Below the pieces are notes generated by a model. That model had not been told where the DNA came from. It made no database searches and was given only the letters and a program-made list of their open reading frames with translations. 64,000 bases of DNA, from NCBI GenBank assembly GCA_964406795.1, contig CAYOTA010000007.1, positions 5,898-69,897 on the forward strand, given 5' to 3'. The position numbers were made by a program, and so were the translations under genes. Source of the stretch: an uncultured Gammaproteobacteria bacterium. Lineage in GTDB: Bacteria; Patescibacteriota; Microgenomatia; Levybacterales; GWA1-39-11. Positions 26,743-47,537 of the stretch are shown one piece after another; within the stretch, counting starts at the first letter, position 1; the number at the start of each line of letters is the position of its first letter.

Positions 26743-29157
26743 ATGAAAAAATTTCTGCCCGTATTTATAAGTCTTTGTGCTTTTTTATTCCTTATTTTTT
26801 TAGTAAGTTCTCCTACCTTTGCATCAAATGGTGCGCCTACATTGGCACCCACAATCGCAGCTGGCCAGAAATTGGGTACTGATGCAACAGATAGATTTGT
26901 GCCTGATTCCAATGTTACATTCGTTGGGAAAACTGCAAGTAGAGCAGGTGATTTTTTAGACCTAACACTCAGAAATTATGACTGGGCATGTGTGACAAGA
27001 AATCCAGTAGATAATACCTGTGACAATAGAAACAATCCGCTAGCTGTATTTTGGGCCACTATCAGAAATATTATTTACGCAATTTTGGTAATCGTAGTGT
27101 TGGCCGCAGCCTTTATTATGATTGCAACTCGTGGAAGAAGTTTGACTATCACGCGCTTCATTCCCCGCTTTATACTCATAATTCTTTTAATAACATTTTC
27201 ATTTTCACTTGTTCAGTTTTTGTATCAAATTGCAGATATTATTCAGGGGTTTTTCCTGCGTACCGGAGAGGGGGCTGCTAGGCATATTATCTCAACTCGC
27301 GACCTCATATTTATAGGGTTTGATTACAAAAACTTTACAGGACTCAGGCTCCCGGGTCCGGAAAATGATGAGTCCGCATTTATGACACTTCTTTTAGTAC
27401 GACTTACCGCTGTTACTTATTACGTTATGACAGGAATTTTGATTGTGAGAAAAATTATCTTGTGGTTTTTTATAGTCTTGTCCCCAGTCTTTCCTCTTTT
27501 ATTGTTCTTTAAGATTATTAGAAATACAGCCAAAATTTGGATTGGTGAATTTTTCAGATGGCTGTTGTATGGTCCACTTTTTGCAATTTTCTTAAACGGT
27601 TTAGTTGTTTTATGGAGTAGCGGAAGTGAGACGAATCCTGGTATTCCGCTCGGGTTTACTATGGTAGGCGTAGGGGATCCAGGAAAAGTTATTTATCCAA
27701 CAGCCGTTAATATTTTGATTGGTGGACCTGGTCAAGCATTAGGTTTTAATAATTCAGTAAATACCCAAGACACATTTGCCTTGTATGTTGTAGCTCTCAT
27801 CATGTTATGGGTTGTTATGATTTTGCCGTTTATTCTGCTTAAGATTTTTCTTGACTTTGCCTCAGGATTGTCCATCCAAAACAACAGAGCATTTAAGCAG
27901 ATGTGGAATAAAGTTTCTCCCGTAACGCCTCCTCCGCCGTCTGGCCCACCACCTCCGGCAGGAGCTGGTTTGGCTATGAAAATGCCTTTTGGAGCCTCAA
28001 AAACTATTACTATGCCGGCTAGTACCTATACCAGTACAGGCTTAGCACGTGAGTTGCCGAGATCTGAAAATATTTCAAGATCAGTTCCAACGATTGCAAG
28101 AATTCCTGAAAATATGCGTATCTTACAGCAGGCAAACATAACAATTCCAAGACTAACGGATATTGCGCGTTTCGAAAAAACCATCGAAACACGTGACACA
28201 TCCAAAATTTCTGAAGTAACGCGCATGACAACTTCTCTGCAAAGAATTTCAAACCCTAGCTCAGTTTCCTCATCTGTTGAAAGAAGCAGGTATCAGCAGG
28301 TTAGAACAGAATTGGTGAAAGAACGCCAGAAGGGTAATGTGCTGGCTACATCTATTTTGAATGCAGCAAATGTTACAAACAACACAAATAATAACACTTC
28401 AAGTTCAAGAGTGGGTGGTTTGCATACTCAGTCAATTCAAAACAATTCATCCACAATAAATAATTCTCAAAGCTCAACTCTTAATAATTCACAGAGTTCT
28501 ACTGTTAATAACAGCCAGGTTTCAACAAGTATGTCAACGGGAGTTAAAAATGCATCAACAAATGTAGTAGGAGGCCAAGTTACAAGCGACGGAGTGCCAA
28601 AGACTGCGATGACAACTCCTTCCGCTGTTCATTTACCCGCAGTAAACAAAGTTCAGCAGGTAAGTATTGAGGATTATGAAGAGGTCAAGAAAATGTGGCT
28701 TGAAACATATGAAACATCCAGTCCTCCAACTGACTTAAATGGTAAAAAATCAACCCGGGATGAATGGATTACCAATGATATGAACAATATTAATCAAGCG
28801 GTGTCACTTTTGAATTCAGTGGATCCAATTAGAGTTAATGAGGGTATGAATATGGTCTCAAATATCCTTCCGTTTTTGATGGTTGGAGGATTTTCAAAAA
28901 CAGAGGTTGTTGCCTATCTTAAAGCAAAACTTGAAGCAGGAAAACAAGTAATGTCTTCCGGAACTAATAAAAAAGATGAGGATGACACGCTTCTTGACCG
29001 TAACACTCACACAACACAAGCAAGTAAGTATATGGAAGCACAACAAGCAGCTGCAATTCCAACTGATACGCCAGGCGCCCCAAGAGAAATGAGTGATGAA
29101 ATGTATAAAACTCCTACTGCTATTCAAAATAAGACTGAAGAATCAATTAAAAAATAG
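26743..29157 (+). CDS. VirB6/TrbL (TcpH-like) polytopic membrane protein with long low-complexity C-terminal tail
   Basis: Signal peptide and a Cys-containing exodomain, then 5-6 TM helices with VirB6-like spacing. The following roughly 400-aa tail is N/S/T/Q-rich with a PPPPSGPPPPAG segment. The architecture resembles Gram-positive conjugation TcpH. Confidence 0.45.
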   Translation: MKKFLPVFISLCAFLFLIFLVSSPTFASNGAPTLAPTIAAGQKLGTDATDRFVPDSNVTFVGKTASRAGDFLDLTLRNYDWACVTRNPVDNTCDNRNNPLAVFWATIRNIIYAILVIVVLAAAFIMIATRGRSLTITRFIPRFILIILLITFSFSLVQFLYQIADIIQGFFLRTGEGAARHIISTRDLIFIGFDYKNFTGLRLPGPENDESAFMTLLLVRLTAVTYYVMTGILIVRKIILWFFIVLSPVFPLLLFFKIIRNTAKIWIGEFFRWLLYGPLFAIFLNGLVVLWSSGSETNPGIPLGFTMVGVGDPGKVIYPTAVNILIGGPGQALGFNNSVNTQDTFALYVVALIMLWVVMILPFILLKIFLDFASGLSIQNNRAFKQMWNKVSPVTPPPPSGPPPPAGAGLAMKMPFGASKTITMPASTYTSTGLARELPRSENISRSVPTIARIPENMRILQQANITIPRLTDIARFEKTIETRDTSKISEVTRMTTSLQRISNPSSVSSSVERSRYQQVRTELVKERQKGNVLATSILNAANVTNNTNNNTSSSRVGGLHTQSIQNNSSTINNSQSSTLNNSQSSTVNNSQVSTSMSTGVKNASTNVVGGQVTSDGVPKTAMTTPSAVHLPAVNKVQQVSIEDYEEVKKMWLETYETSSPPTDLNGKKSTRDEWITNDMNNINQAVSLLNSVDPIRVNEGMNMVSNILPFLMVGGFSKTEVVAYLKAKLEAGKQVMSSGTNKKDEDDTLLDRNTHTTQASKYMEAQQAAAIPTDTPGAPREMSDEMYKTPTAIQNKTEESIKK

Positions 29158-29209: not shown

Positions 29210-31927
29210 ATGTTCGGAAATTTATTTACTCCAAAAAAAGACGATGTGTTAAATGGTTTACCTCAAGATGCGCCTGTAGTGTCTACTGAATCACAAGAGA
29301 CTATGAGTATGGGGCAGCAGTCGGGTATATCCAGCTCAGATCAGGACATGAATGCCGGAGGAATAGATCCCCAAAAAAGGCAAAGTATGTCAGCTCTTTC
29401 CAAACTTGATCCTCGATCTTTGCAGGTTTTGCACCATGCTGAGCAAGAAACTAAACGCGTTCAAGCCTCTCAAATTGGCTCTGAACAGCTGCTTTTAGGA
29501 ATGTTTTATGACGGTGAGATTTTTCAACTTCTAGAAAGTTTCCAAGTGGATGTGGCAAAGCTGACACAGCAAATTCAAAGCAAAGAAAAACCTGGCGGAT
29601 TTACCGGACAGCCCACCATGAGTACTGCCGTAATTCAGATATTTGATGAGGGTTACAAAAGTGCAAAAAAAAGAGGCGCTTCCTTTGTCTCCCCGGAAGA
29701 TATATTGGTTGGATTCTTTGCGGATCCCGCAACAACCTCATTTTTAAAAGCATTTGGAATTGAAAAAGGAAAACTGGATGATAAACTTTCCAAAACAACT
29801 TCTTTTGCCCAATCATCTAGAAAATCAGTGTTGGAAAAATATGGAATTGATCTGACTCAGGAGGCAAAAGATGGAAAGCTTGACCCAGTTGTAGGCCGAG
29901 ACAAAGAAACAGAGCGTTTAATTCACATTTTATTAAGACGCACAAAAAATAACCCTATTATTATAGGTGAAGCTGGAGTTGGAAAAACGGCTATTGTTGA
30001 GGCACTTGCACAAAAAATAGTAGAAGGATCAGTTCCTCATGATCTACTAGACAAAAGAATTATTCAGCTTGAATTGTCATCCCTTGTGGCAGGTGCGTCT
30101 CACAGAGGTGAGTTTGAGGAGCGACTTCAGGATGTAATTCATGAAACCCAGGCTTCAAATGGGAAAATTATTTTGTTTATAGACGAGATACACACGCTCA
30201 TTGGCGCTGGAGACACGGGCGGAGCACTTGACGCGTCCAATATCATAAAGCCATATTTGGCCCGTGGACAGCTGCAACTTATCGGAACTACCACTACGGC
30301 CGAATACAGAAAGCATTTTGAAAAAGATAAGGCATTTGAAAGACGTTTCCAGTCAGTGTTAGTAGATGAACCTGAAGAAGAAGTAGCGCAGCAAATGTTG
30401 GACGTACTGCGTCCTAAATATGAAAAATTTCACTCTGTAGTTATAACCCCAGAAGCAATTGAGGCAGCAGTTCATTTGTCAAAAAAATATATTGGTGAGC
30501 GCTATCTTCCGGATAAGGGAGTTGACCTATTGGATGAGGCTGCCGCTGAGGTAAAACTTCAGCACACTGAGGGCAAGCGTGCAGATAATAATGTGGTGAA
30601 AGCTGACATTGAAAAAGTGGTTGCAGCTTGGACCGGAATTCCTATAACCAGACTTACTGAAGATGAAAGTCAAAAACTAATTCATTTGGAAGACACAATT
30701 CACAAGCGCTTTATAGATCAAGAAGAAGCTGTAGGATCAGTATCTGAGGCTGTAAGACGCGGAAGAATTGGACTCTCGGCCGCCAACAGACCCATTGCGT
30801 CATTTATTTTCCTAGGCCCTACGGGTGTAGGTAAAACAGAGTTAGCTAAAACGCTTGCTGAAATTTTATTTGGCCGCGATGACTTACTGGTCAGACTTGA
30901 TATGTCTGAATATATGGAAAAGCATGAGGTAGCAAAGCTTATAGGTGCACCTCCTGGGTATGTAGGATATGAGGAGGGTGGACAGTTAACGGAGGCGGTA
31001 CGTGCAAAACCCTATTCTATTGTGTTGCTGGATGAAATTGAAAAAGCTCATCCTGATGTGTTTAATATTCTTTTGCAGCTTTTGGAAGATGGTCGCTTAA
31101 CTGACAATAAAGGAAACACAATTTCATTTAAGAACACTATCATAATTGCGACTTCAAACATTGGAAGCTCAGTTATTCAGCAGACATTATTAACACAAGC
31201 ATCCAACGGAACGCAAGTAGTATCCCCGGAAGAAGAAGCTAAAAAGTATTCTGAACTGTCAGCAACCCTTATGGAAGAGTTGAGAAAATTCTTTAAACCG
31301 GAGCTGTTAAATCGTTTTGATGACATAGTTATGTTTAAACCCTTACGAATGCGCGATATGGCCCAAATTGCAAAATTGGGAATAGGAAAAACACAAAAAT
31401 TACTGGAAGAGCAAAAAATCCATTTGGAAATAACAGAGAAAGCAATTGGAATATTGGCAAAAGAAGGATACGATCCAGTTTATGGTGCGCGACCTTTAAG
31501 ACGCCTTGTCCAGACCGCAATTGAAAATCCCATTGCAGTTCTATTAATCAACAAAACATTTGTGCCGGGGGATATTATTAAAATCGATTATGATGATGCA
31601 AAGTCTGAGTTTACCTTTACAAAAGGTGTACCTGCGGTTGCAGGGCCTCAACCATCTATATCTGAGACAGCACAAAATCCAGTTGTTCAGCCTCAATACG
31701 TGAATCAAGCACCTCAAGCTTCAGGTGTGTCAGCTAATCCATCAGGTATTGCCCAACCGCAACAGACTCAGCCCATGAATGCTATGCCTCAGCAGCCAGT
31801 AGATGATCCAAATGCAGGAATTTTGTCACAGATTGCGCAGGAACACACAGTAACACCTATACCATCAGCACCAAATGGTACTGCTCCTCAGCCTGGAGTT
31901 GGCGGAACCATGATGCAACCCGCATAA
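29210..31927 (+). CDS. clpC: ClpC-like class-I AAA+ unfoldase (Clp_N, D1, short linker, D2) with disordered N- and Q/P-rich C-terminal extensions
   Basis: Two Clp_N repeats; D1 Walker [10 protein letters not shown] and Walker B ILFIDEIH; D2 [12 protein letters not shown] and LLDEIEKAH; GAR sensor-2. There is no long ClpB M-domain. No [LIV]G[FL] tripeptide occurs at the ClpP-loop position ([22 protein letters not shown]). Confidence 0.85.
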
Positions 31928-36378: not shown

Positions 36379-36705
36379 ATGGGTATTCTGCTCTATCCCT
36401 TTGTAGTGCTTTTATTTTGGTATAAAGATGGTCTCTTGTCTATCTTTTCATTTTTCGGATCACTTAATGATTATTCTCTAAGGCTATTCTCACTTCCCGG
36501 TCTTTTTGCCACATACTTCAGGCCGCTTAAAAACGAATACAGAAAAAACCTTATTTTGTTTTCAATTCTATTTGGAATGGTTGTTAAAACATTTCTTATC
36601 ATAGGTTCATTGACTATTTTTTCCATAATTTTACTGTGTGAACTAATCGTCATTAGCATATATTTAATTTTCCCGCTTTTGCCAATTATTTTATTTTTAG
36701 GATGA
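36379..36705 (+). CDS. Small 3-TM membrane protein, translationally coupled to the downstream membrane ClpC paralog
   Basis: 108 aa and hydrophobic, with an ATGA stop/start overlap with 36702. Confidence 0.4.
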   Translation: MGILLYPFVVLLFWYKDGLLSIFSFFGSLNDYSLRLFSLPGLFATYFRPLKNEYRKNLILFSILFGMVVKTFLIIGSLTIFSIILLCELIVISIYLIFPLLPIILFLG

Positions 36706-39071
36706 AACTATTTAATTATTACGACTTTTATAAGTTGTACTCTCTGGTACCCATGAGGGTTTTGCGTGTTTTAATTTTGTTGGGATTAGCTAGTCTTATA
36801 ATTCTTAACTATGAAGAGTTTTTATTGTTTAGACTTTTTCTCATAATTTATACACTCTTTCTTATTAACGAGATATTTATTTACTTTAAATTAAACAAGT
36901 CTTTCCCCCGATTTTTAGTTATAGATAATAAAGCAAATTTTGAAGGCTCCACTCTTTTTAAAACAAAGAAAATTATGTCAGGAAGGAATCTTTTCTCCAA
37001 TCTTCATGACTTATTCAAAGAAATAGACGTAGCATTTCTTATAGAAAGAATTGGCGGAACCATGCAAAGTTATGAGCAGGTAGATCTAAAAATCTTATAT
37101 GAAAAATCTTTAGAAGTGGCTCGGCGATCTGGGGGAAAATACATAACATCCGCCGATGTTGCGGTCGCATATTTACTTATCACGGAAGAAAAAACAAAAT
37201 ATTTGTTTCAGCAAGAAATAACAGAAAACGATTTATATGAAATACTTATGTGGGCACGTGGGAGGTATGGTTTAGATCGAGCTAAATCAAGCACATTGCA
37301 CTTCACCGGTTATGGGGTTTTTGACTTCTTTATTTATGGATGGGATACATTAATTAAAGAATATTCGTATGACATTTCTTTAAGTGTAATCAATAAACAT
37401 GAAACGCCAATTGTTGGCCGGGAAAAAGAGTTTCATGCAATGGTATCTATATTATCTAAAAATACAGCAAATAATGTTATTTTACTTGGGGAGCCAGGTG
37501 TTGGAAGATCGGCGTTAGTGCGCAAATTTGCACTTGAAGCATATAGAGACTCTCACTTTGTGCTGGCACACACAAAAGTATATGAGTTATTGGCAGACAG
37601 ACTACTTTCAGGAGTGCAAAACACGGGGGACCTAGAGTCTCGGTTATCTCTCTTGTTAGCTGAACTGGAGCATTCAGGGAATATTATTTTGTTTATTCAA
37701 AATATAGAAAATATATTTGGTGGCGGTGGGTTTAACTTTGATATGTCAGGTATTCTGTTTCAATACTTAAAAAGTGGGCGGGTGCAGATAATTGGAACAA
37801 CAACTCAATCTTTCTATAAAACCGTGCTTGAGAAAAAACCCAGCATATCTAATTTATTTGAAAAAATAAGAATTGAGGAGCCTGACCGGGCAAATATTTT
37901 CCAGATGATTGCTTCACATGTGGATATTATTGAGCATGAGTATCAACTGTCTGTCTCATATAAAGCAATTCATGAATCCGTTGAGTTATCTTCTACATAC
38001 ATGCCTGATTTATATCTTCCGGGAAAGGCAATAAATCTTTTATCTGATGTTGCGGCCCAAGCCAGAATGAATGGACAAAAAAATGTCTCCAAAGATGACG
38101 TAACGCGTGTTATTCAGGAGAAGACAAATATAATCCTTGAAAAGCCTACGGAAGAAGAGAAGAAAACGCTATTGTCGCTTGAGGCAGATTTACATAAAAG
38201 AGTTATTGGGCAAAATGAAGCAGTTGATGCTGTTGCAAAAGCCATCAGACGACTGCGTTCAGGATTTTCTCAGCATAACAGGCCCATTTCAGTATTTTTG
38301 TTTTTAGGCCCAACAGGGGTTGGAAAAACTGAGACAGCAAAAGCACTGGCTGCATTATATTTTGGCGATGAAAATTCCATGATCAGGCTTGATATGTCTG
38401 AGTATCAAACTCAAAATGAAGTAGAGCGTTTACTCGGTGGAATTCCTGGAGGGGAAGAACTTGCTAACTCATTGCCGGAAGCAGTAAGACAGCATCCATT
38501 TTCACTCCTTCTTTTAGATGAGTTTGAAAAAGCACATCCTCGTATTTTGGATATTTTTCTTCAAATTTTTGAAGATGGACGTCTTACTGATAACCAGGGT
38601 AAAACAGTTTCATTTAAAAACACAATTATTATTGCAACTTCCAACGCTGGATCAGAACTAATAAGACAAATGGTTAAAATGGGCCTAAACGGAGATAATA
38701 TGAAAAATGACTTGGTTGAGGCATTGCTTTCAAATGGCCAATTTAAACCAGAATTACTTAATAGATTTGATGACGTTATCGTGTTTAAACCGCTTACTGT
38801 TGAAGAAGCTTCTCAAATAGCCGGTCTATTGCTCTCACATTCACTAAAAACATTAGAAGATGATCAAATATATCTTACATTTGATGCAAGTGTTATCGAA
38901 AAGATAGTAAGGGAGTCTTATGACCAGGAGGCAGGAGCACGTAATATGAGAAGGTATATAGGTTCTACAATCGAGGATTTTATATCTAAACTTATTCTTG
39001 AGAATAAACTCGCTCGAGGAACACACGCAGTAATTGGTACTGATGTAAACGGAAATTATATACTACAATAA
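36702..39071 (+). CDS. Membrane-anchored ClpC paralog with degenerate (pseudo-ATPase) D1 and intact D2
   Basis: Two N-terminal TM helices and a Clp_N-like repeat. The D1 Walker A is GEPGVGRSA (K to R, T to S), the Walker B is ILFIQNIEN (DE to QN), and the Arg-finger region is altered. D2 is intact ([26 protein letters not shown]). An MGL tripeptide sits at the ClpP-loop position (KMGLNGDN aligned to ClpC KHLGFNVQD). Confidence 0.75.
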   Translation: MKLFNYYDFYKLYSLVPMRVLRVLILLGLASLIILNYEEFLLFRLFLIIYTLFLINEIFIYFKLNKSFPRFLVIDNKANFEGSTLFKTKKIMSGRNLFSNLHDLFKEIDVAFLIERIGGTMQSYEQVDLKILYEKSLEVARRSGGKYITSADVAVAYLLITEEKTKYLFQQEITENDLYEILMWARGRYGLDRAKSSTLHFTGYGVFDFFIYGWDTLIKEYSYDISLSVINKHETPIVGREKEFHAMVSILSKNTANNVILLGEPGVGRSALVRKFALEAYRDSHFVLAHTKVYELLADRLLSGVQNTGDLESRLSLLLAELEHSGNIILFIQNIENIFGGGGFNFDMSGILFQYLKSGRVQIIGTTTQSFYKTVLEKKPSISNLFEKIRIEEPDRANIFQMIASHVDIIEHEYQLSVSYKAIHESVELSSTYMPDLYLPGKAINLLSDVAAQARMNGQKNVSKDDVTRVIQEKTNIILEKPTEEEKKTLLSLEADLHKRVIGQNEAVDAVAKAIRRLRSGFSQHNRPISVFLFLGPTGVGKTETAKALAALYFGDENSMIRLDMSEYQTQNEVERLLGGIPGGEELANSLPEAVRQHPFSLLLLDEFEKAHPRILDIFLQIFEDGRLTDNQGKTVSFKNTIIIATSNAGSELIRQMVKMGLNGDNMKNDLVEALLSNGQFKPELLNRFDDVIVFKPLTVEEASQIAGLLLSHSLKTLEDDQIYLTFDASVIEKIVRESYDQEAGARNMRRYIGSTIEDFISKLILENKLARGTHAVIGTDVNGNYILQ

Positions 39072-39075
39072 ATAT

Positions 39076-40077
39076 ATGGAAAAAATTGCGGTTTTTGAAA
39101 TAGAAGAGTGGGAAAAGGAATTTATAAAAAATGCGCTTCCTCAAAAAGAGTTTATATTTTTTGATCGTCCGTTGCGACTTGAGGATGTAGGTGCGATAAA
39201 AGACATTAGTGGGCTTGTTGTATTTATTTATTCTCAAGTTACAAAAGAAGTTATAGATGCGCTTCCAAATCTAAAATTTGTAACAACCATGTCCACAGGT
39301 TTTGACCACATTGACCTAGAAACATGTAGGCAAAGACAAATAACCGTATGTAATGTTGCTGGGTACGGAGAGATTACTGTTGCAGAGCACACGTTTGCGC
39401 TTCTTCTGGCTATTTCCAGACGACTTATTGAGTCATATACCAGGGTTAAAGATGGATATTTTTCACCAGAAAATCTAACGGGTTTTGATTTGAATGGAAA
39501 AACATTAGGAGTAGTTGGCGTAGGAAGTATAGGTGCACACGTAATTAAAATTGCGCATGGTTTTGGGATGAATGTAATAGCATACAAAAGAACACCTGAT
39601 CCCGAGTTGGAAAAAAAACTAGATTTTAAAATTGTAGATCTTGATACGCTTTATAACACATCAGATGTGGTGTCATTGCATGTTCCCTATACAAAGGAAA
39701 ATCATCATATGATTAATGCAGAAGCAGTTTCAAAAATGAAAAAAGGTGTAGTTATTCTTAATACATCTCGCGGTCCGTTAATTGATACAACCGCTTTATT
39801 AAAATTTCTTGAAGAAGGAAAAATTGGTGGAATTGGCTTAGATGTTTGTGAGAACGAACCTATGTTACGAGAGGAAAAGCAGATATTATCAAAAGAGTTT
39901 AATAAGGAAGACTTATTGTGTTTGCTTGAAGAAAAGATGCTTTTAAATTATAAAAACGTGATCGTTACTCCTCATAACGCATTTAATAGCCGCGAAGCGC
40001 TGCAGAAAATTTTAACAACCACTATTGAAAACATTAACACATGTTTAAAAGGAAGTCCTCAAAATGTAGTTTCTTAG
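39076..40077 (+). CDS. D-isomer-specific 2-hydroxyacid dehydrogenase (D-lactate/phosphoglycerate dehydrogenase family)
   Basis: GVVGVGSIGAHV NAD-binding Rossmann motif and a catalytic R...E...H arrangement (TSRGPLID, TPHNAF). Confidence 0.8.
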   Translation: MEKIAVFEIEEWEKEFIKNALPQKEFIFFDRPLRLEDVGAIKDISGLVVFIYSQVTKEVIDALPNLKFVTTMSTGFDHIDLETCRQRQITVCNVAGYGEITVAEHTFALLLAISRRLIESYTRVKDGYFSPENLTGFDLNGKTLGVVGVGSIGAHVIKIAHGFGMNVIAYKRTPDPELEKKLDFKIVDLDTLYNTSDVVSLHVPYTKENHHMINAEAVSKMKKGVVILNTSRGPLIDTTALLKFLEEGKIGGIGLDVCENEPMLREEKQILSKEFNKEDLLCLLEEKMLLNYKNVIVTPHNAFNSREALQKILTTTIENINTCLKGSPQNVVS

Positions 40078-40421
40078 TTTTTGCCGGGAGTTATTAAAAG
40101 ACTTAAGAACCAGTTCACAATTGACACAATTATACTAAAGAATAACGCTGATAAAAATCCGTTTACAAAAAATCCAGGGACAATAACTGACGCAAGTAAA
40201 ATTATCAAAGCGTTTAATACAAAGATAAATAGGCCTAACGTTATAATTGTGATAGGTAATGTCAACAAAACAAGAATTGGTTTTAATATGGTGTTTAGTA
40301 TCCCAAGAACTATAGCCAGAACAAAGACAGTTATCGCACTTTCCACAACAATTCCTGGAACAATGTATGCCGCTACAAAAATTGATACACAACTTACTAA
40401 AAGATATATAAGTAATCTCAT
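40074..40421 (-). CDS. 4-TM membrane protein, phage-holin-family-IV/YvlD-like
   Basis: 115 aa with four hydrophobic helices resembling the Phage_holin_4_2 superfamily. Last gene of the sortase operon. Confidence 0.45.
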   Translation of the reverse strand: MRLLIYLLVSCVSIFVAAYIVPGIVVESAITVFVLAIVLGILNTILKPILVLLTLPITIITLGLFIFVLNALIILLASVIVPGFFVNGFLSALFFSIIVSIVNWFLSLLITPGKN

Positions 40422-40439
40422 GAGTTAAGGATAATATTT

Positions 40440-41036
40440 TTAGCGCGGCTTGTCAACCTTGGGCACAGCAAATACTAAAAGACGCTGTAGTGACGTACCA
40501 ATGGGAGTACATGTTTGCAAAATAAGTTGGGTTTTTTGAGTGTTTTGAAGATAAGAAACTTCATTTGGCCACACTGTTTTTTTATCACTCACTATATACT
40601 TGTATTTTTTACCATTCTTAATAAGCATAATTTCATCGTTTTTTTGAAGCTCACCTAATCTATAGAATGCACTATTTTGTCTTGTGATTCTCCACGGTAA
40701 GTCGTATGAATGAGCAAAAAGGAATATAGTACCACTGGTGGATGCAATAGTTGCTGTTCCTTTTGCATGAGCTACTCCTTTTTTTAACTCTTTTTGATAC
40801 TCTGCTTCATTCCACGGATTTACATTTTCTATAATGGGCGCTTGAGCCTGAATTTTTGGTATTTCTATAAATACACCTTTTTTGGGTGAAGCTTTGATAG
40901 CAGGTGGATTAACATACACAAACAATAGTGGATAATAAATATAAAGCAATACAAGAATGGGAATTAACATCAAAGTATTTCCGATATTTTTTATGATATT
41001 TAGTTTTTGTTTTTTTGTGAGCTTGAGATTTGTCAT
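40440..41036 (-). CDS. Sortase (transpeptidase), class-E-like
   Basis: N-terminal TM anchor, a His loop (GVAHAKGTA), and a LILQTCTP catalytic-Cys TLxTC motif. It lies directly downstream of an LPXTG protein. Confidence 0.7.
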   Translation of the reverse strand: MTNLKLTKKQKLNIIKNIGNTLMLIPILVLLYIYYPLLFVYVNPPAIKASPKKGVFIEIPKIQAQAPIIENVNPWNEAEYQKELKKGVAHAKGTATIASTSGTIFLFAHSYDLPWRITRQNSAFYRLGELQKNDEIMLIKNGKKYKYIVSDKKTVWPNEVSYLQNTQKTQLILQTCTPIGTSLQRLLVFAVPKVDKPR

Positions 41037-41086
41037 GTGGGTATTATGCGTGAGAAGAGCGTGAAAGTCAAACGTTTACAAATACT

Positions 41087-42190
41087 TTATTTTCCAGGAG
41101 CAATCCCAGAGCGATAGCGCAGATACCAACCTGAGAAGAATGTTATTAGACTTGCCAAAGTAATGAAATACAAAAGATATGATCCGGTTGCCGGAAGAAC
41201 ATCTCCACCACTAGCAGCACTGGACGCTGATGCTCCCCCTACAGATCCGCTTGAAGGATGGCAATTTTCAATACATGGCTTAGGGGACGGAGCAGGAGTT
41301 ATGGTAGGTGTTGGAGACGGGTTTTCTGGTTTTTCACAATCACAATCAGCATATAAAAAATTACTGTTTGCTGAATTATTTATTTCAATAAGGGACAATA
41401 TTCCGCCTGTTTTAATATAGACGTCACCCGTATTTCCTTTTGCTGTATTTTTCCCTGTGTTGAGCAATGACATAATATTATTTGTTATAAATGAATTGTT
41501 TGAGGATGTAGAAGCTAATGTCTTAGGGTCGGAGTAAAACATTTTATTAATTGAATCAGCTGCATTATTATGAATCGCAAGCACAACTGCTTTTTGTCCA
41601 AATGACAAGTGCTGGACAGAAGAGTTAATATTTGAGTTATCTAGTTGAATACTTGAAGTAATACTTCCTGTATTTATCACCACATGTCCATTGTTGTAAC
41701 TTGCAGTATTACTTCCGGTATTTGCTTTGACGGTAATATTATTAGTAATTACAGTGTTGTTGTTTTGGTTGGAATTAACTGTCTGAGAAGTTTGAGAGTT
41801 AATAATGTTATTAGATTCGGCACCATTGTTTTCAATTTTTATAGTTGTTTCTGAATTTGTGCAGCAAGGGTTGTTAGTAGCTACGTTCGCATTTATATTT
41901 TCATTTGAAATGTTTACTTCAGATGATGTGTCACCGGTTTTGATAGCCGTATCCCCTTGGTTACTATTTGAAGTATTGTCGCCAGTATTTGCATTAGAGT
42001 CTACATTATTTTGAATCTCTGAGCTATTGTCTTGGTGTACGGCAGTGTTTTGGTTTGATTCAACACTTACTTCATTTTGGGAGTTCGCCCCGTTTCCTGA
42101 TATTACAATTTCTTCAGCGTATGCTTGTGTGAAAATCTGCAGTTGTAGTGCTACGCAAAGAGTGAGTGATACAAAAATCTTTTTTGACAT
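41087..42190 (-). CDS. LPXTG cell-wall-anchored surface protein with Asn/Thr-rich repeats
   Basis: Signal peptide, ISGNGANSxNEV...TGDN...IKTGD repeat modules with CC/CDC motifs, a PSPTPT linker, and a C-terminal LPATG plus hydrophobic stretch plus RYRSG sorting signal. Confidence 0.7.
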   Translation of the reverse strand: MSKKIFVSLTLCVALQLQIFTQAYAEEIVISGNGANSQNEVSVESNQNTAVHQDNSSEIQNNVDSNANTGDNTSNSNQGDTAIKTGDTSSEVNISNENINANVATNNPCCTNSETTIKIENNGAESNNIINSQTSQTVNSNQNNNTVITNNITVKANTGSNTASYNNGHVVINTGSITSSIQLDNSNINSSVQHLSFGQKAVVLAIHNNAADSINKMFYSDPKTLASTSSNNSFITNNIMSLLNTGKNTAKGNTGDVYIKTGGILSLIEINNSANSNFLYADCDCEKPENPSPTPTITPAPSPKPCIENCHPSSGSVGGASASSAASGGDVLPATGSYLLYFITLASLITFFSGWYLRYRSGIAPGK

Positions 42191-42226
42191 GTATTTGGGG
42201 CAAGAGTAGGCAGGGGAACAATTTAG

Positions 42227-44455
42227 CTATTTGTGGGGCAGGTATTTAATAGCTTGTGAAAGTCTTTTTTTGAATGCAAATAGTGCAATTGCTGGAATTA
42301 AAAGTAATGCCCATGCGAGATTTAAAGTAACTGCTTTTGGTATCTCTGATTTAGCAGACACACCTGCAACCATTTTTGATATTCCAGTATCATACCCTTG
42401 TGCTAGCAGTTTGGTATTCGATTTATTATTAGAATTAGCACCGGTTGTTGATGCTACTGCAGCATGTGCAGTTTTAGGTGTATTAGTTGGAGTAGCTACT
42501 GTATTAATGTTGTTGGCTTGAGCAGTTTGATTTGATGAAGAAGCACTCGTATTAGTTTTTTCTTGTCCACCTCTGTGCGATTCGTTAGATGTATTTTGTG
42601 CAACACTTTTTTCTGCTTTCTTTTGTCCTGGCATTATCAAATCCCCCATCCAGTTACCAAATACATTAACTACTGTTACCATGAGTTTTCCTCCACCTGC
42701 TACGTTGTTATTCACAAAGTTAACAAGATTTGCAACAATCTGTGCGTCTCCTGTTTTTATAACATTATCTTCACCAATGTTGTCATTAACCTGATTATTT
42801 CCTGTATTAGCTGTAAGATCCAATGTATTAGATACTTTAGCTGTATTATTTTGAACTGTTGTATTGTTTTCCGTATTGTTAATAGTAGTGTTGTTGGTAG
42901 ATCCTTCACCATTTCCGCTAGTATTAATAGCTGTTATAGTTCCATCGTCATTCACAATAAATTCTGTACCAGCACTTCCTGCCATGGTAGAACCGTCAGG
43001 ACTGCCCATTATTTTACCAACCCATTTTCCGGCTTGATTAACAATAGCCAACCACCATGTACCATCAGACGCAATGTTTGAGTTTGCAATATTTAATACA
43101 TTCGCGGTTATGTCAGTGTTTCCTGTTTGAATAAATGCTGTTCCTTTTCCGCCATTTCTCATTGCTTCGTTGCCGCCAGTGTTTCCGTCAAGAATCAAAT
43201 TATTTTCAATTACAGTGTCATTATTTTGGAATGTTAAATCATTTTGCGCGTTATTAACTGTTGTATTGTTTTGGGAATTTGCTCCATTATTAGAAGTATT
43301 TGCAGCTGTTCCATTGGCACATGTTGCACATTGAAATGCACTTTCAGGAATAATGATGTCGCCGATTAAGTTTCCAAATATATTTACAAAATTTAAGGCT
43401 ACATTTCCAGCGATGTTATTATTAACAAATGTTAATGCATTAGCTGCTACATTAGCGTCTCCCGTTTCTACATATGAGTTACCACCGCCATTTCTGTTTG
43501 CCTCATTATATCCACTGTTTGCTGCAAGAGTTAATGTAGCATCTATATCTGCACTATTTGTTTGGAATGTATTGTTACTAACTGTGTTGTTAACATCAGT
43601 ATTGTTGGTAGAATTTGCCCCGTTATTTGTGTTCGCTACCGTTGTGCCACCATTGCCGCCACACCCGATGATGCAGCTTGCTCCAAAGTCTAAGATGATG
43701 TCTCCAGTGTGATCGTCTAGTACGTTGAATTCTGAAACTGCAACCCCATCAACATTTGTATTAACACCGGTTATAACTGTTCCCGTTGTGTTTGCATTAC
43801 CTGTTTTAATGGTGGCATCTCCCATATTGTCATTGGTTGTGTTGTATCCTGTGTTGCTTGCAAGCTCCAAAGAGCTTGCTACTTGCGCGTCATTAGTTTG
43901 AATGCTGTTATTGTTAGTAGTGTTTCCGACAGAAGCGCTATTGTTAGATCCAGCAAGATTTCCCGAATTAATTACCCCAACTGATCCGCCATCCGGAGCG
44001 GTTGTGCTGGTATTATTGTTTCCTAATGTGGTTATCGCCCCTGTTTCAGTTGCGTTTCCTGTTTGAACAGTTGCATCTCCGATTTGAGCATTTTGGGAAG
44101 TACCTTGTTGTGTTGCTGGTGTTGGAGTAGGTATTGTTTGTACCTTGTTTGTTTGTTGTGTCTGACTATTATTTTCTTGGTTTTCCTGTCTTTGTTCATC
44201 TCTATTTTTTTCACGAGGAGTGCGTGTTGGCTCAGGTGTACTAGTTGGTTCACCAAAAGATGGAGAAGTTGGAGCATTTGGAGCTGTTGGTGCAGCTGGA
44301 GCTTGAGGAGTACTTGGCGCACTTGGCGCAGATGGCGCTTCAGGAGCGCTTGGCGCTTCTTGAGCAAGTGTTATAGGTGCACTTTGAGTCACAAGTAATG
44401 ACAATAATACTAAAATTACTATTCCTTTTTTAATTTTTTCTGTTATCCTGTTCAT
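42227..44455 (-). CDS. Large surface repeat protein (same repeat family) with Pro/Ala-rich N-terminal linker and C-terminal TM anchor
   Basis: Signal peptide, (A/S)P(S/T/E)AP tandem repeats, then about 8 copies of a 75-aa module (GANSxN..V.N...TGxNxA..N.G...I.TG.A...AN..NFVNNN). The C-terminal hydrophobic helix plus KKRL has no LPXTG. Confidence 0.6.
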   Translation of the reverse strand: MNRITEKIKKGIVILVLLSLLVTQSAPITLAQEAPSAPEAPSAPSAPSTPQAPAAPTAPNAPTSPSFGEPTSTPEPTRTPREKNRDEQRQENQENNSQTQQTNKVQTIPTPTPATQQGTSQNAQIGDATVQTGNATETGAITTLGNNNTSTTAPDGGSVGVINSGNLAGSNNSASVGNTTNNNSIQTNDAQVASSLELASNTGYNTTNDNMGDATIKTGNANTTGTVITGVNTNVDGVAVSEFNVLDDHTGDIILDFGASCIIGCGGNGGTTVANTNNGANSTNNTDVNNTVSNNTFQTNSADIDATLTLAANSGYNEANRNGGGNSYVETGDANVAANALTFVNNNIAGNVALNFVNIFGNLIGDIIIPESAFQCATCANGTAANTSNNGANSQNNTTVNNAQNDLTFQNNDTVIENNLILDGNTGGNEAMRNGGKGTAFIQTGNTDITANVLNIANSNIASDGTWWLAIVNQAGKWVGKIMGSPDGSTMAGSAGTEFIVNDDGTITAINTSGNGEGSTNNTTINNTENNTTVQNNTAKVSNTLDLTANTGNNQVNDNIGEDNVIKTGDAQIVANLVNFVNNNVAGGGKLMVTVVNVFGNWMGDLIMPGQKKAEKSVAQNTSNESHRGGQEKTNTSASSSNQTAQANNINTVATPTNTPKTAHAAVASTTGANSNNKSNTKLLAQGYDTGISKMVAGVSAKSEIPKAVTLNLAWALLLIPAIALFAFKKRLSQAIKYLPHK
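44255..44365 (-). repeat. Imperfect tandem 9-15 nt DNA repeats encoding an (A/S)P(S/T/E)AP linker
   Basis: Reiterated ggcgc(a/t)cttggcgc units on the plus strand, translating on the minus strand to APSAPEAPSAPSAPSTPQAPAAPTAPNAP. Confidence 0.5.
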
Positions 44456-44490
44456 ATTTGTCAGTTTGTTTATTTTTATTTTCTAATTTA

Positions 44491-44540
44491 AGCTGTAGGG
44501 TGTCTTGAATTAGGTGCCCTTCAAGTGCACCCTACAACTT
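44491..44540 (-). terminator. Intergenic nested hairpin (possible terminator/attenuator) between two repeat-protein genes
   Basis: GTAGGGTG...CACCCTAC 8-bp outer stem enclosing a GGTGC...GCACC inner stem. There is no clean U-tract, so its function is uncertain. Confidence 0.3.
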
Positions 44541-44549
44541 AATGAAGTT

Positions 44550-45809
44550 TTAGAGACCTAAAACTCTTAAAAGATCTGAAAGATCAAAATTAAGAGATAA
44601 ATCTACATTAACTCCTGGTACGTGAACACTTGGCATTTGTGTAGCTCCGAAAACATTAACGTTTCCTTCGTTGGAAACTTTAGTCCATGAATCTGCGTTT
44701 CCAGTCTTGATAGATGGATCATCATATTCTGTTCCTCCGTTTCTGTTTGCGTCGTTGTCTCCAGTTTTAGCGTTTCCGTCTACATCATTGTAAAGTTTTG
44801 CGTTGTTTCCAGCGCCTTCTCCTCCTTGGTAAACTTCTGTGTCATTGCCGAGTTTAGCTTTGATTTTATTTTCAGAATCAACAAGATTCTGTGAGATCTT
44901 AGCTGTAACATCTGTTTCACATTCGCATCCAACTTCAGCCATGTTGAAATTAACTGAATTGTCAACTTCTACTTCTGATTCTGCATTTCCTGTATCTATC
45001 ATTACAGTTCCTCCAATGTTGTCATTGGCATCATTGTATCCAGTTTTTGCATCTGAATCGATTTCGTTTTTAACTTTGGCGTCGTTGTCTTGCACAACTA
45101 ATACGTCATTGTCTAATCGTGCGTCGATACTGTTGTCTGTATAAGCACCGTTTCCAGTGATCATAAGCTTAAGTGATCCAGCGTCACCATTTCCTCCAAC
45201 TGTTGCAGAATTAACATTTGCGGTTGTTGAAACAGTAACTTCAGATGTGGCGTTTCCGGTTTTAATGGATACGTCACCACTTCCGTTTCTGTTTGCATCG
45301 TTTCCGCCAGTTTTAGTGTTAGAGTCTACGTTATTTTTAACATTAGCTTTGTTGTCTTGGTAGACAGCAGTCTCGTTACTGTTAGAATTACGTCCACTGT
45401 TAAGCTGAACTTTGTTGTCAGATCCTGCTAGGTTTCCAGAGATTTTAACTTCTGTATCCTCTGCACAATCGCAGTTGTTAACATCTGCTACGTTTTTGTT
45501 AAGGTCATTAGCAATATTTGTAGTAGATGTTGCATCACCAGTTTCGATTCTCACTTCACCTGTGATGTTGTCATTTGCTTTATTTCCTCCAGTTGAAGAA
45601 TTAGATGTAACATTATTTGTTACAACTGCGTTATTATTCTGAGTAACAGTTGTGTTGCTTGAATTATTAACTTTTACTTCATTGTTGGAATTTGCTCCAT
45701 TGCCTGTTATTTCAAGCATTGTTTCTGCGTGCGCTAATGGCGCAAATACGTTTAATAGCATTGCTGATGTTGCAACAGCTGTTGCAACTCTTTTATGTAA
45801 GTTTGTCAT
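44550..45809 (-). CDS. Secreted Asn/Thr-rich repeat protein (four 95-aa modules; CDC/CEC motif in alternate modules)
   Basis: A strong SD GGAGGAGGTGA sits 7 nt upstream. Signal peptide ...APLAHA. Repeats I[TS]GNGA..N......TG.NDAN.N.G...I.TGNA.SEV.V, with no sorting signal. Confidence 0.6.
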   Translation of the reverse strand: MTNLHKRVATAVATSAMLLNVFAPLAHAETMLEITGNGANSNNEVKVNNSSNTTVTQNNNAVVTNNVTSNSSTGGNKANDNITGEVRIETGDATSTTNIANDLNKNVADVNNCDCAEDTEVKISGNLAGSDNKVQLNSGRNSNSNETAVYQDNKANVKNNVDSNTKTGGNDANRNGSGDVSIKTGNATSEVTVSTTANVNSATVGGNGDAGSLKLMITGNGAYTDNSIDARLDNDVLVVQDNDAKVKNEIDSDAKTGYNDANDNIGGTVMIDTGNAESEVEVDNSVNFNMAEVGCECETDVTAKISQNLVDSENKIKAKLGNDTEVYQGGEGAGNNAKLYNDVDGNAKTGDNDANRNGGTEYDDPSIKTGNADSWTKVSNEGNVNVFGATQMPSVHVPGVNVDLSLNFDLSDLLRVLGL

Positions 45810-45921
45810 ATATTTAATTCACCTCCTCCCTTTTGTTCCCCGTAAAACGGGAAAGCACCTTGGAAATTCGAACTATGTCCGTTTTTTCCGTTTTCTTCCT
45901 GCCTAAACGGTTAAAAAGAAA

Positions 45922-45977
45922 ACAAAAAAAAACGGAGGCCTCTCTATCTAATTAGCTTAGATACAGACGCCTCCGTT
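45922..45977 (-). terminator. Rho-independent terminator (minus strand)
   Basis: 9-bp stem AACGGAGGC / GCCTCCGTT with a 29-nt loop. A9 lies on the plus strand upstream, which is a U9 tract after the stem on the minus strand. Confidence 0.6.
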
Positions 45978-46125
45978 TACGGTCAGCTCGTTTATTAAAT
46001 TGTCAAGGTTTCAAGTACTTTCATATTTACTATTCATCTGTCTACGAACACTAGTATAGTGTTGTAATAGCAAATCTAATATAATACACATCAAACTTCA
46101 ATGTCAATGGGTCAATATAGATCAG

Positions 46126-46290
46126 TTATGTTTTTTTCTCAGACATTTTCTTAATACTTCTTTCAGTAATTTGGACTACCATGGAATCCTGTACAAAAAT
46201 TTCAATACTTCCCCATTTGATTGTAGACAAGGCTTTTTTTATTTCGTCCAATAATTCAGTATTGGCTGTATTTGTAGAATATGCTTTCAT
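46126..46290 (-). CDS. YezD/DUF2292-like small protein (54 aa), missed by the 60-aa ORF track cutoff
   Basis: Translates to MKAYSTNTANTELLDEIKKALSTIKWGSIEIFVQDSMVVQITERSIKKMSEKKT. The pattern L..I..AL..IK.GS..I.VQD..VVQIE...K matches the YezD family. Confidence 0.4.
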   Translation of the reverse strand: MKAYSTNTANTELLDEIKKALSTIKWGSIEIFVQDSMVVQITERSIKKMSEKKT

Positions 46291-46308: not shown

Positions 46309-47028
46309 TTAGAAAGAAATTTTGATAGTTTCTTTTTTGCCGTTTATTTCTCCCACTTTTAATTCCAAATTTTTATCAGTTTCATTAATTGGAAATCCAA
46401 TTCTTGTTTGTTTTGTTGAGATTGCCTGCACCTCAACTGGGTCATTGTGAATGTCAGCTGCTACAAGTTCTTCACTGTTTCCGTTTACGGAAAGTCTAAT
46501 GTAGTCCTTACTGCTTATTTGAATACCTTGATTAAATGTATTTGTAATTTTTAAGTCTAATATAAGGAATGTTCTTCCTTGAATTGCTCGTGCACGTTGT
46601 CCTTTTACCAATATTTCATCTTGAAGTGATGCAGACTGAACAAGATATTTAATTTCACTTAACTCTTTATTGTTCTGGTCTTTAATAGGGAAGCTAAACT
46701 CTTTATTTATAACTTTTTTATTTTTAACAACTGGAGCTGCAGGTTTTTCACTACTTGCAGTCGTTGCAGTAGTAGTTTGTGTATTTTTAACAAGAACAAT
46801 TATTCCTCCTACAACCAATAGTAGAATACCAATTATAAGAAATTTAGGTGATAAGGGATTTTTGAAGTTTGTTTTTTTAGAAATAGCTGATTTAAAATTA
46901 TTCACCTGAGAAAATTTGGATCCTGTGAAGGAAAAAAGATATGTAGAGAGTGATAATGCCCTAGTTTTCATAAATTGTACTTTGGGCAGAAGTGTTGTGA
47001 TATTATCACAGGTGAAATTTACTGTCAA
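46309..47028 (-). CDS. Membrane-anchored hypothetical protein (single N-terminal TM, beta-rich ectodomain)
   Basis: Hydrophobic helix LIIGILLLVVGGIIVLV, a T-rich linker, and no motif. Confidence 0.4.
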   Translation of the reverse strand: MTVNFTCDNITTLLPKVQFMKTRALSLSTYLFSFTGSKFSQVNNFKSAISKKTNFKNPLSPKFLIIGILLLVVGGIIVLVKNTQTTTATTASSEKPAAPVVKNKKVINKEFSFPIKDQNNKELSEIKYLVQSASLQDEILVKGQRARAIQGRTFLILDLKITNTFNQGIQISSKDYIRLSVNGNSEELVAADIHNDPVEVQAISTKQTRIGFPINETDKNLELKVGEINGKKETIKISF

Positions 47029-47045: not shown

Positions 47046-47537
47046 TTAATTGAGCTTGATGGTGGTTTTGCTATCCCCTGAGTTTTTTGTTATTTCTACG
47101 TGTAACTTTTCAACACCATTATCAGCTGCCAAAACGTTTTTGACATTATCATTTGTATTAGTTGTAACGACAGAAGTAGTGTTCATATTTTTATCCTTTA
47201 TAAAGTTTTTATACCAATCTGTGACAGCTTGAGGACTGTCAGTGCTTTGATAGCTATTCTCCCCAATTGCAGTTGAATTTGGGTAAACGATATTTTGAGA
47301 ACTTGAGCTGTTTGGCGTATGAGTAATTTCTACACGTACCTCAGAATTTCCTAATTCTTTTAAGGTGTTTGTAGGTGTAGTAGTGGGAATTGAAGTTGAA
47401 TTGGCAGGAATTGTAGGGCTTATAGATTCATTTGTTCCAAGGACATCATCTTTTAGAGGTGAAGCTTTGATTGAAATATTTGTCACAACAAGTGCAGTGA
47501 TAATGAACAGAGGAACAAGTAAATTCATTATTTGCAT
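47046..47537 (-). CDS. Secreted hypothetical protein
   Basis: Signal peptide MQIMNLLVPLFIITALVVTNISIKA, Ser/Thr-rich, no motif. Confidence 0.4.
   Translation of the reverse strand: MQIMNLLVPLFIITALVVTNISIKASPLKDDVLGTNESISPTIPANSTSIPTTTPTNTLKELGNSEVRVEITHTPNSSSSQNIVYPNSTAIGENSYQSTDSPQAVTDWYKNFIKDKNMNTTSVVTTNTNDNVKNVLAADNGVEKLHVEITKNSGDSKTTIKLN

Follow-up and report, generated by a model that had tools for sequence, protein, structure and literature searches.

A stretch of 64,000 nucleotides from contig CAYOTA010000007.1 (positions 5,898 to 69,897 of the forward strand; GenBank assembly GCA_964406795.1), referred to here as the window, carries on its minus strand the genes of three paralogous repeat proteins, A, B and C, together with that of a sortase. 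The five minus-strand open reading frames (ORFs) listed in a preliminary description of this DNA were all found in place: protein A at 44550-45809 (419 amino acids, aa), protein B at 42227-44455 (742 aa), protein C at 41087-42190 (367 aa), the sortase at 40440-41036 (198 aa) and a protein with four transmembrane (TM) segments of the Phage_holin_4_2 family at 40074-40421 (115 aa; Pfam E 9.2e-30). Three further genes precede A on the same strand, namely U163 (47046-47537), U239 (46309-47028) and a DUF2292 gene (46126-46290). We found that the cluster is a seven-to-eight-gene unit of Microgenomatia, OP11-type bacteria of the candidate phyla radiation (CPR), and that the genes first noticed in the window are its core. 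From its sequences, the protein system reads as a surface assembly linked to a sortase, in which some paralogs of a new family are anchored and others free. The preliminary description had proposed one operon from A through B, C and the sortase to the holin-like gene. The gene order was correct, but the extent was not: U163, U239, the DUF2292 gene and a fourth paralog, D, were missed, the holin-like gene is not a member, and the cluster is not one simple operon.

The gene cluster and its conservation

Proteins A, B and C are Sec-type secreted paralogs made from 11 copies of an Asn/Thr/Gly-rich module of about 88 aa, four in A, four in B and three in C, to which B adds a half-module. In A the signal peptide is followed by the four modules (aa 29-116, 118-206, 213-298 and 300-393), with CDC and CEC after modules 1 and 3, and by a conserved amphipathic C-terminal tail (aa 396-419); there is no anchor. 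Protein B has a signal peptide, a PA-rich region (aa 32-70), the half-module and four modules, each with a conserved insert, and ends with a low-complexity stalk, a TM segment (aa 714-728) and a short basic tail. In protein C the signal peptide is followed by three modules, and a stalk rich in Pro leads to LPATG (41183-41197), a TM segment and RYRSG. The sequence after LPATG is SYLLYFITLASLITFFSGWYL, then RYRSG, which gives C the make-up of a sortase-dependent LPXTG surface protein; its match to Pfam Gram_pos_anchor had an E of 0.33. The PA-rich region and TM anchor of B and the confinement of the sortase signal to C had been read in the same way in the preliminary description.

Related loci were collected by scanning one genome per species with an alignment of 11 A sequences. 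The scan returned 65 loci, and the census by ORFs and hidden Markov models (HMMs) covers 68 loci. The labels of 39 of the 65 species-level genomes are Levy-, Woese-, Gottesman-, Ames-, Davies-, Curtiss- or Roizmanbacteria, Microgenomates or Patescibacteria. Among the other 26, one is labelled Nealsonbacteria and 25 carry "uncultured Gammaproteobacteria" titles, which we read as placeholder labels on third-party annotation (TPA) records of metagenome-assembled genomes (MAGs). Throughout the 65 genomes the order U163 – U239 – DUF2292 – A – B – C – sortase is fixed. Module numbers are fixed as well, with four in A, 4-5 in B, two in D, and in C three when the signal is LPxTG or one when it is a variant signal.

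The sorting signal is restricted to C across the loci. At 51 loci C-type proteins have LPxTG or a G-L-S-x-T-S/A-G variant ahead of a TM segment and a basic tail, while A-type proteins (67 loci) and B-type proteins (60 loci; about 700-790 aa with a C-terminal TM segment) were without a sorting signal. In C of Woese-, Gottesman- and Amesbacteria a G-L-S/A-x-T/A-S/A-G signal takes the place of (V/I)LPxTG (for example L003, L005, L011, L014, L015, L018, L037 and L064).

The sortase of the window has an N-terminal TM segment, a His in FAHS (aa 107-110), a Cys at aa 176 (the TC in LILQTCTP) and an Arg in LQRL, and these His, Cys and Arg motifs are conserved among its relatives. Its assignment to the sortase family, like that of the holin-like protein to Phage_holin_4_2, agreed with the preliminary calls (PF04203, E 4.7e-23, 81.7 bits against a cutoff of 26.6; PF04020, 103.8 bits against 28.8). 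The best NCBIfam match was the class C model NF033745 with 64 bits against a cutoff of 160, which does not place the enzyme in class C, and it scored below the cutoff of all NCBIfam sortase class models. The closest solved relatives in the Protein Data Bank (PDB) were class C sortases (E 4e-06). The sortase gene follows C at 46 loci, and its type goes with the type of signal: LPxTG loci have FAHSS…LILQTCxPiGT and variant loci FAHAR…LTLfTCSGFlD, with 25% identity between the two types and about 50% within each. This co-variation fits C as the cognate substrate of the enzyme, with lineage as a confounder.

U163, the first gene of the conserved cluster, encodes a small protein that is secreted or anchored in the membrane and has a linker rich in Pro and Thr. 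Homologues were detected by phmmer at the same position in 33 of the 68 loci; they share the C-terminal motif S.D..iT.WYK.kI...gmn..sFv.T.tNg.vlNkL, and no Pfam family was found for U163. U239, with an N-terminal TM segment and a highly conserved extracytoplasmic beta domain, is present at 66 of the 68 loci. It is weakly DUF4352-like (4 of 11 members match, best E 0.001), and U239 of the window matched DUF5067 with an E of 0.079. The ORF as called mechanically begins at TTG. Because the homologues begin at the equivalent of Met20 (MKTRAL), the real start of U239 is probably 46971. The third gene, directly upstream of the promoter and leader of A, encodes a YezD-like DUF2292 protein of 54 aa without a signal peptide (PF10055, E 1.3e-09, 37.9 bits against a cutoff of 22) and occupies this position at 63 of the 68 loci. 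PDB searches with the DUF2292 protein and U239 gave no match.

Paralog D is encoded convergently after the sortase at about 35-40 loci. It has about 200 aa and two modules, and in most relatives it is without an anchor. D proteins have a single CxC, a perfect Shine-Dalgarno sequence (SD), neutral to basic charge and a Lys-rich second module (for example L005, L016 and L023).

In the window the holin-like gene sits where D stands in most loci. Such a gene was present at six of the 68 loci, five times in the position after the sortase and once upstream of the cluster (L008). Besides the window, the position after the sortase recurs only in L001, L002, L004 and L027, and L001, L002 and L004 are the nearest relatives of the window. 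Because it is confined to these few loci, we regard the holin-like gene as a neighbour outside the system. Similarly, queA and other genes outside the cluster are shared only by the four loci nearest to the window (L001, L002 and L004 with 75-80% identity in A), thus conservation is specific to the cluster.

In a genome labelled Parcubacteria (L070, 5867-11552; GCA_016203935.1) the cluster occurs in rearranged form. Its C-like protein ends in LPAAG, a TM segment and RRRNR, and its B-like protein has 1,183 aa and nine modules, apparently without a C-terminal TM segment. No sortase was found nearby, and the 3′ stem-loop and leader motif described below are both absent from this locus.

The module family and its fold

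Asn accounts for 15.5-16.7% of the residues of A, B and C, and Thr, Gly, Ala, Ser and Val are also frequent. The modules align over about 88 positions with invariant N, G and T columns. Each of the 11 modules scored 74-107 bits against a module HMM, which is a consistency check as the HMM was built from the same modules, and with this HMM no further copies were found in the window outside A, B and C. In a library of 1.84 billion proteins, 3,298 representatives at 50% identity matched the profile of the 11 window modules at E <=1e-3, and 788 of them reached E <=1e-30. Homologues of A numbered 437, with lengths of about 400-430 aa, no product names, and Levybacteria and Gottesmanbacteria as the named sources; their alignment has invariant N, G, Q and C columns.

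No Pfam or NCBIfam family was found for A, B or C. Scanning 48 members of the A family singly against Pfam at E up to 10 gave no consistent family, a known domain co-occurring with the module was not found by Pfam in 10 relatives with unusual architectures, and neither A nor the module profile matched a PDB sequence. The module thus remained unrecognised, as first described, and the confident match to a known Pfam repeat that would have spoken against its novelty did not appear. On these data it is a sizeable undescribed all-beta family with more than 3,000 clusters. The initial view that it is unique to one lineage did not hold, because it occurs in 3,298 clusters and across the 65 species-level genomes.

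Cysteines occur in A, B and C only as close pairs at module junctions, with CDC and CEC in A, CxxxC and CxxC in B, and CC and CDC plus CxxxC in C. These pairs, pointed out before as punctuating the modules, are kept family-wide with modal counts of 4, 4, 4 and 2 in A, B, C and D. The mature proteins A, B and C have isoelectric points of 4.2-4.5; that of mature A is 4.17 and the median of the A family 4.05.

The AlphaFold prediction of A suggested in the preliminary description was made with 48 sequences. It was all-beta as anticipated, but its confidence was mediocre, with a mean predicted local distance difference test score (pLDDT) of 58 and a predicted template modelling score (pTM) of 0.49; the module cores reached 80-88. 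In this model a module consists of two short strands, a strand of about 22 residues, a TGxNxAxxNxGG turn, a short strand and a strand of about 18 residues. In the predicted models, DSSP assigned unbroken strands of 18-23 residues to both flanks of the TGxN turn, as in a hydrogen-bonded hairpin. A construct of two modules (118 sequences) was predicted worse than the four-module A, with a pLDDT of 49, and this lower confidence is a hint that modules need partners. A Foldseek search of the PDB with the A model gave no significant match (top E 0.018, template modelling score below 0.1).

Mean-field direct coupling analysis (DCA) was run on 1,701 non-redundant modules (effective number of sequences, Meff, 1,465). 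Of its 40 strongest couplings, 19 lie on the anti-diagonal i+j = 107-113, against a chance expectation of 5.4%. The anti-diagonal couplings align module positions 26-51 antiparallel to positions 59-81. In strand 26-44 only even positions couple, and these carry the conserved Q, N, A and V; nearer the turn, three couplings fall on odd positions (47, 49 and 51). Furthermore, the GNG loop (10-14) couples to the turn (49-55) and beta1 (4-8) to beta2 (16-21). The couplings 66-76/79, a register shift at 71-73 and the coupling of N10 to Q30 as well as to V59 are not all compatible with a single straight hairpin. They may reflect a compact sandwich fold-back, or some of them may be contacts between modules or between chains. 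Taken together, a long antiparallel hairpin or arch is established as the core of the module. AlphaFold and DCA support this arrangement, while the beta-solenoid considered initially was not demonstrated.

Expression signals and RNA elements of gene A

A sigma-70-like promoter candidate for A lies at 46078-46107 (minus strand; TTGACA-18-TATATT, 11 of 12 matches) and is the top-scoring site in a 7.8-kb scan. In the aligned leaders of the relatives, TTGACA and TATA boxes are found at the corresponding site. The strong SD of A noted earlier was confirmed as a near-perfect match, GGGAGGAGGUGA, at 45819-45830 on the minus strand (SD sequence GGGAGGAGGTGA). Over the loci, the longest stretch matching AGGAGGUGA ahead of the start codon had a mean length of 6.9 nt for A and 8.2 nt for D, but only 0.9-1.5 nt for the remaining cluster genes (B, C, the sortase, U163, U239 and DUF2292); B, C and the sortase have no SD. 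This contrast indicates that the unanchored A and D are built for strong translation and that the anchored paralogs and the enzyme are not.

Between promoter and SD lies a conserved, terminator- or attenuator-like leader element (45924-45987, minus strand), composed of the block GCUGACCGUAAACGGAGGC, a variable stem-loop and GCCUCCG followed by U9. Its hairpin with U9 (45924-45978) has a predicted energy of -34.8 kcal/mol and a z of -5.25. The leader of A as a whole runs from the TTGACA and TATA boxes through the block GCUGACCGCAAACGGAGGCU, the variable stem-loop and GCCUCCG with its U-run to a CGG motif, GAAGUGC, a small hairpin, AAAGGAGGUGAA and the AUG. The class-wide form of the block is GCUGACCGYAAACGGAGGC, and the hairpin arms are SD-like (GGAGG) on the 5′ and anti-SD-like (CCUCC) on the 3′ side. 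Of 65 loci, 57 have CGGAGR/YCUCCG arms and 54 have CUCCG with a run of four or more U. There is no second copy of the block in the window, and 51 loci have a single copy upstream of A. With the promoter boxes placed before the terminator-like hairpin, the leader looks like an attenuator and may act as one. The cytoplasmic DUF2292 protein, encoded next to it, is a candidate reader of the leader. Two ACGGA repeats follow U9 at 45878-45891.

The block was also seen upstream of D. One extra copy is located in L015 (12511-12526, minus strand), and in some Ames- and Woesebacteria (L015, L033 and L064) the GCUGACCGC…CGGAGGC block precedes D without the CCUCCG-U-run half. It may thus be a separate protein- or DNA-level site common to both highly expressed paralogs.

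The second RNA element is a stem-loop directly 3′ of the stop codon of A (44486-44545, minus strand; -28.3 kcal/mol, z -7.45). Its outer helix of 8 bp, GUAGGGUG/CACCCUAC, is followed by a bulge and an inner helix, and the loop GGGCACCUAA occupies 44508-44519. An equivalent hairpin follows A in essentially every locus; the stems vary in sequence and the loop is nearly always GCACUUC. In a MAFFT alignment of 54 sequences, 81.5% of the cells of the 15 stem pairs were paired, compared with 38-48% when the partners were slid. All 15 pairs had changed on both sides, and none of 500 shuffles reached the observed score. A covariance model (R1) found one sense-strand match per locus, always right after A, in 61 of 67 loci searched, including eight loci outside model building. 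There was no second match in the window or in 883 kb of loci. A general type of terminator was considered for the stem-loop and rejected, since about 950 kb contained no copy beyond the single one at each locus. In the window as in the relatives an A-rich sequence follows and a U-tract is lacking, thus the stem-loop is not an intrinsic terminator.

The loop of the 3′ stem-loop has its reverse complement in the leader of A, where the heptamer AAGGUGC (GAAGUGC in most relatives) is located at 45855-45861 (minus strand). A perfect Watson-Crick partner of the loop heptamer was present 30-110 nt upstream of the AUG in 37 of 59 non-redundant loci against a background of 0.8% (binomial P about 1e-61, a value that overstates independence because the loci are phylogenetically related). 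With G·U pairs allowed the count was 47 of 59 against 2.4%. Compensatory pairs of loop and leader were GCACCUU/AAGGUGC in the clade of the window, GCACUCU/AGAGUGC in L030, ACACUUC/GAAGUGU in L007 and L059, and UCACUUC/GAAGUGA in L005; several leaders differ by G·U-compatible changes only. Among the loci without the loop motif there are four (L003, L009, L034 and L063) in which complementarity to the leader did not exceed that of shuffled controls either. An extension of the co-variation beyond the 7-bp core was rejected, because an anchored test of the flanks was at chance with 39-49% paired. For the window alone the predicted duplex of -14.6 kcal/mol was equalled by 18 of 500 shuffles. The claim of a pairing between leader and loop is thus carried by the comparative evidence.

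The complementarity suggests 5′-3′ pairing within the mRNA of A, or action in trans of a processed 3′ fragment. Its effect may be stabilising, repressing, or exerted in trans after processing. A parallel is the icaR mRNA of Staphylococcus aureus, in which a short 3′ untranslated motif is complementary to the own 5′ untranslated region (UTR), pairs with the SD and represses translation (PMC3868564). In the mRNA of A, however, the partner is located about 25 nt upstream of the SD and about 50 nt before the AUG, the 3′ motif stands in the loop of a long covarying hairpin, and the pair is conserved class-wide with compensatory changes. Rfam searches gave no relevant match at E up to 1 for the region of the window and none at E up to 0.1 for four diverse loci. 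Both RNA elements around A are new and supported by covariation. With them come a structured RNA backed by covariation and one of the very few candidates for 5′-3′ UTR pairing in bacterial mRNAs, which rests on comparative evidence rather than on a single species. With a promoter-like site of its own, a leader that contains a terminator, and a 3′ stem-loop, A is not part of one simple operon.

A proposed surface assembly and its alternatives

We favor the view that the cluster builds a multi-paralog cell-surface assembly in which free A docks on wall-anchored C and membrane-anchored B, and give this reading, which is drawn from anatomy and conservation, a probability of about 55%. The sortase would cleave C between the T and the G of LPATG and link it to peptidoglycan, and B would be kept in the membrane on its long low-complexity stalk. 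The strongly acidic A, and likewise D where present, would be made in large excess. A could then dock onto the anchored paralogs by module-to-module beta interactions via the co-evolving Asn/Ala/Val face and form a coat or fibres on the cell surface. Disulfide or metal cross-links, as an optional element, would probably come from the vicinal Cys pairs at the junctions, and the leader with its terminator together with the 3′ hairpin would set a high, regulated and stoichiometrically separate expression of A. The evidence for such an assembly consists of the fixed module numbers and gene order, the dichotomy of the SDs, the co-variation of sortase and signal, the even Cys counts at the junctions, and the family-wide acidity of A next to a neutral-to-basic D.

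Several points weigh against this reading. Abundance, localisation and assembly of A are predicted from anatomy and comparative genomics only, and a strong SD speaks for expression only indirectly. Because loci were picked for their resemblance to A, the census is conditional on the presence of A. The window itself is without D. The AlphaFold model of A is of mediocre confidence (pLDDT 58) and has no structural neighbour, and the couplings 66-76/79 and N10-Q30 are hard to reconcile with a straight hairpin, so that the module might be a compact sandwich. Finally, the A-like protein of the rearranged cluster in L070 has 375 aa and four modules but no Cys, which argues that cross-links are not essential.

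A more specific form of the surface assembly, which we consider tentative and on the whole doubtful, is a proteinaceous S-layer-like coat of OP11/Microgenomatia in which synthesis of A is set by the attenuating leader, possibly read by the DUF2292 protein, and by a kissing 3′ loop that closes the mRNA. In 2015 Luef et al. reportedly saw a distinctive envelope with a surface layer in ultra-small groundwater cells by cryo-electron microscopy. S-layer genes have strong promoters and structured 5′UTRs that serve mRNA stability (PMC10221546), and gene A has, like Lactobacillus slpA, a strong promoter and SD and a long structured 5′UTR, and encodes a secreted protein that is acidic, poor in Cys and rich in Asn, Thr, Ala and Val (PMC10221546). 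Unlike S-layer proteins, A has no SLH, CWB2 or other anchoring domain in Pfam or NCBIfam, and its anchoring in the putative lattice would be indirect via C and B.

It is unlikely in our estimate that A, B and C are independent host- or substrate-binding adhesins made of compact beta-sandwich repeats, which do not co-assemble and of which C is merely anchored by the sortase. CPR bacteria are thought to be host-attached and are enriched in surface proteins (PMC6744442; PMC7143001), which suits adhesins. Moreover, a module of about 88 aa and about 7 strands has the size of an Ig-like domain, and Ig-like or G5/Rib/SHIRT-type stalk repeats of Gram-positive adhesins were taken for comparison. The couplings 66-76/79, the shift at 71-73 and the contacts of the GNG loop to base and tip would fit a compact fold-back. 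Yet adhesin repeats normally vary in number and diversify in sequence, whereas the numbers here are fixed (4, 4-5, 3 and 2) at 40-50% identity across seven named phyla. Unanchored and very strongly translated proteins like A and D would not be expected, and the conserved face of the module is rich in Asn, Ala and Val, unlike the hydrophobic core of a sandwich.

Less probable still is a functional amyloid fibre in the style of curli, Fap or chaplins, where each module is a beta-arch rung of a cross-beta solenoid, C or B nucleates and A polymerises outside the cell. Chaplins comprise the short secreted ChpD-H and the long sortase-anchored ChpA-C, and curli are formed by CsgA and CsgB; the free major subunit and anchored paralog of our cluster mirror both pairs. 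The same Asn, Gln, Ala, Val and Gly positions recur in every module, and one face of the long strands co-evolves as the inward residues of an arch would. The weak top Foldseek matches were FapC, many parallel beta-helices and CsgA, but these matches were not significant, with template modelling scores below 0.1. Furthermore, there was no match to Curlin_rpt, Chaplin or an amyloid family at E up to 10 in the 48 members, a rung of two strands of about 22 residues would be far wider than known bacterial amyloid rungs, and the DSSP strands of 18-23 residues around the TGxN turn have the layout of a hydrogen-bonded hairpin.

The known systems differ in detail. The chaplins of Streptomyces are alike in that paralogs share one module and that some are sortase-anchored while others are free and assemble on them. 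However, no Chaplin/DUF320 (PF03777) match was found, and the chaplin domain is hydrophobic with about 40 aa, compared with about 88 Asn-rich acidic aa here. Beyond this, the cluster has a membrane-anchored paralog, a sortase of its own, three accessory genes and the RNA elements. Curli CsgA/CsgB and FapC of Pseudomonas share with it imperfect repeats with Asn, Gln, Gly and Ala and a free major subunit next to a surface-bound paralog. On the other hand, Curlin_rpt (PF07012) did not match at E up to 10 in the 48 members, and CsgA (8c50) was hit by Foldseek with an E of 1.1. Machinery of the CsgG/E/F type is absent, the organism is presumed to be monoderm, the repeat is four times longer, and by co-evolution its strands form an antiparallel pair.

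A sortase-polymerised pilus of the Gram-positive type, with A, B and C covalently joined into the shaft, is very improbable: the best NCBIfam and PDB matches of the sortase are class C (pilus) enzymes and several structural paralogs adjoin it, but polymerisation needs a sorting signal in each subunit and C alone has one at every locus examined, so that the model fails its defining test, besides which Cna_B, FctA and pilin-type domains are absent (Pfam; A, B, C and the 48 members, E up to 10) and the class C score was 64 against 160 bits. With Spa/Fim-type pili the cluster shares a sortase encoded with several secreted structural proteins and the class C relatives; it differs in having one LPXTG substrate, no pilin domains or pilin motif, and a sortase that failed the class C cutoff.

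In the CPR a MdbA-like oxidoreductase and VKOR are enriched, and sortases are near-ubiquitous in Microgenomates (PMC6744442), while the CPR envelope has been described as unclear (PMC5220378). In the literature we found nothing specific on the substrates of CPR sortases or on abundant surface proteins of the CPR. With its dedicated sortase, cognate substrate, and membrane-anchored and free paralogs, the cluster is a concrete class-wide candidate for a component of the CPR envelope, and it makes the open question of the sortase substrates and envelope make-up of Microgenomates (PMC6744442; PMC5220378) testable.

Apart from the cluster, two genes for Clp/AAA+ ATPases were noted on the plus strand of the window (36702-39071 and 29210-31927). 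The one next to the cluster encodes 789 aa, of which the N-terminal 70 or so residues are hydrophobic and TM-like, which is unusual for the ClpB/ClpC type; this gene also adjoins the cluster in the close relative L001. The gene at 26743-29157 (plus strand) encodes a protein of 804 aa, secreted or in the membrane, which weakly resembles TrbL/VirB6 (E 7e-4, below cutoff); it is followed by the genes of a ClpB-like ATPase and a subtilase with an SdrD_B-like domain.

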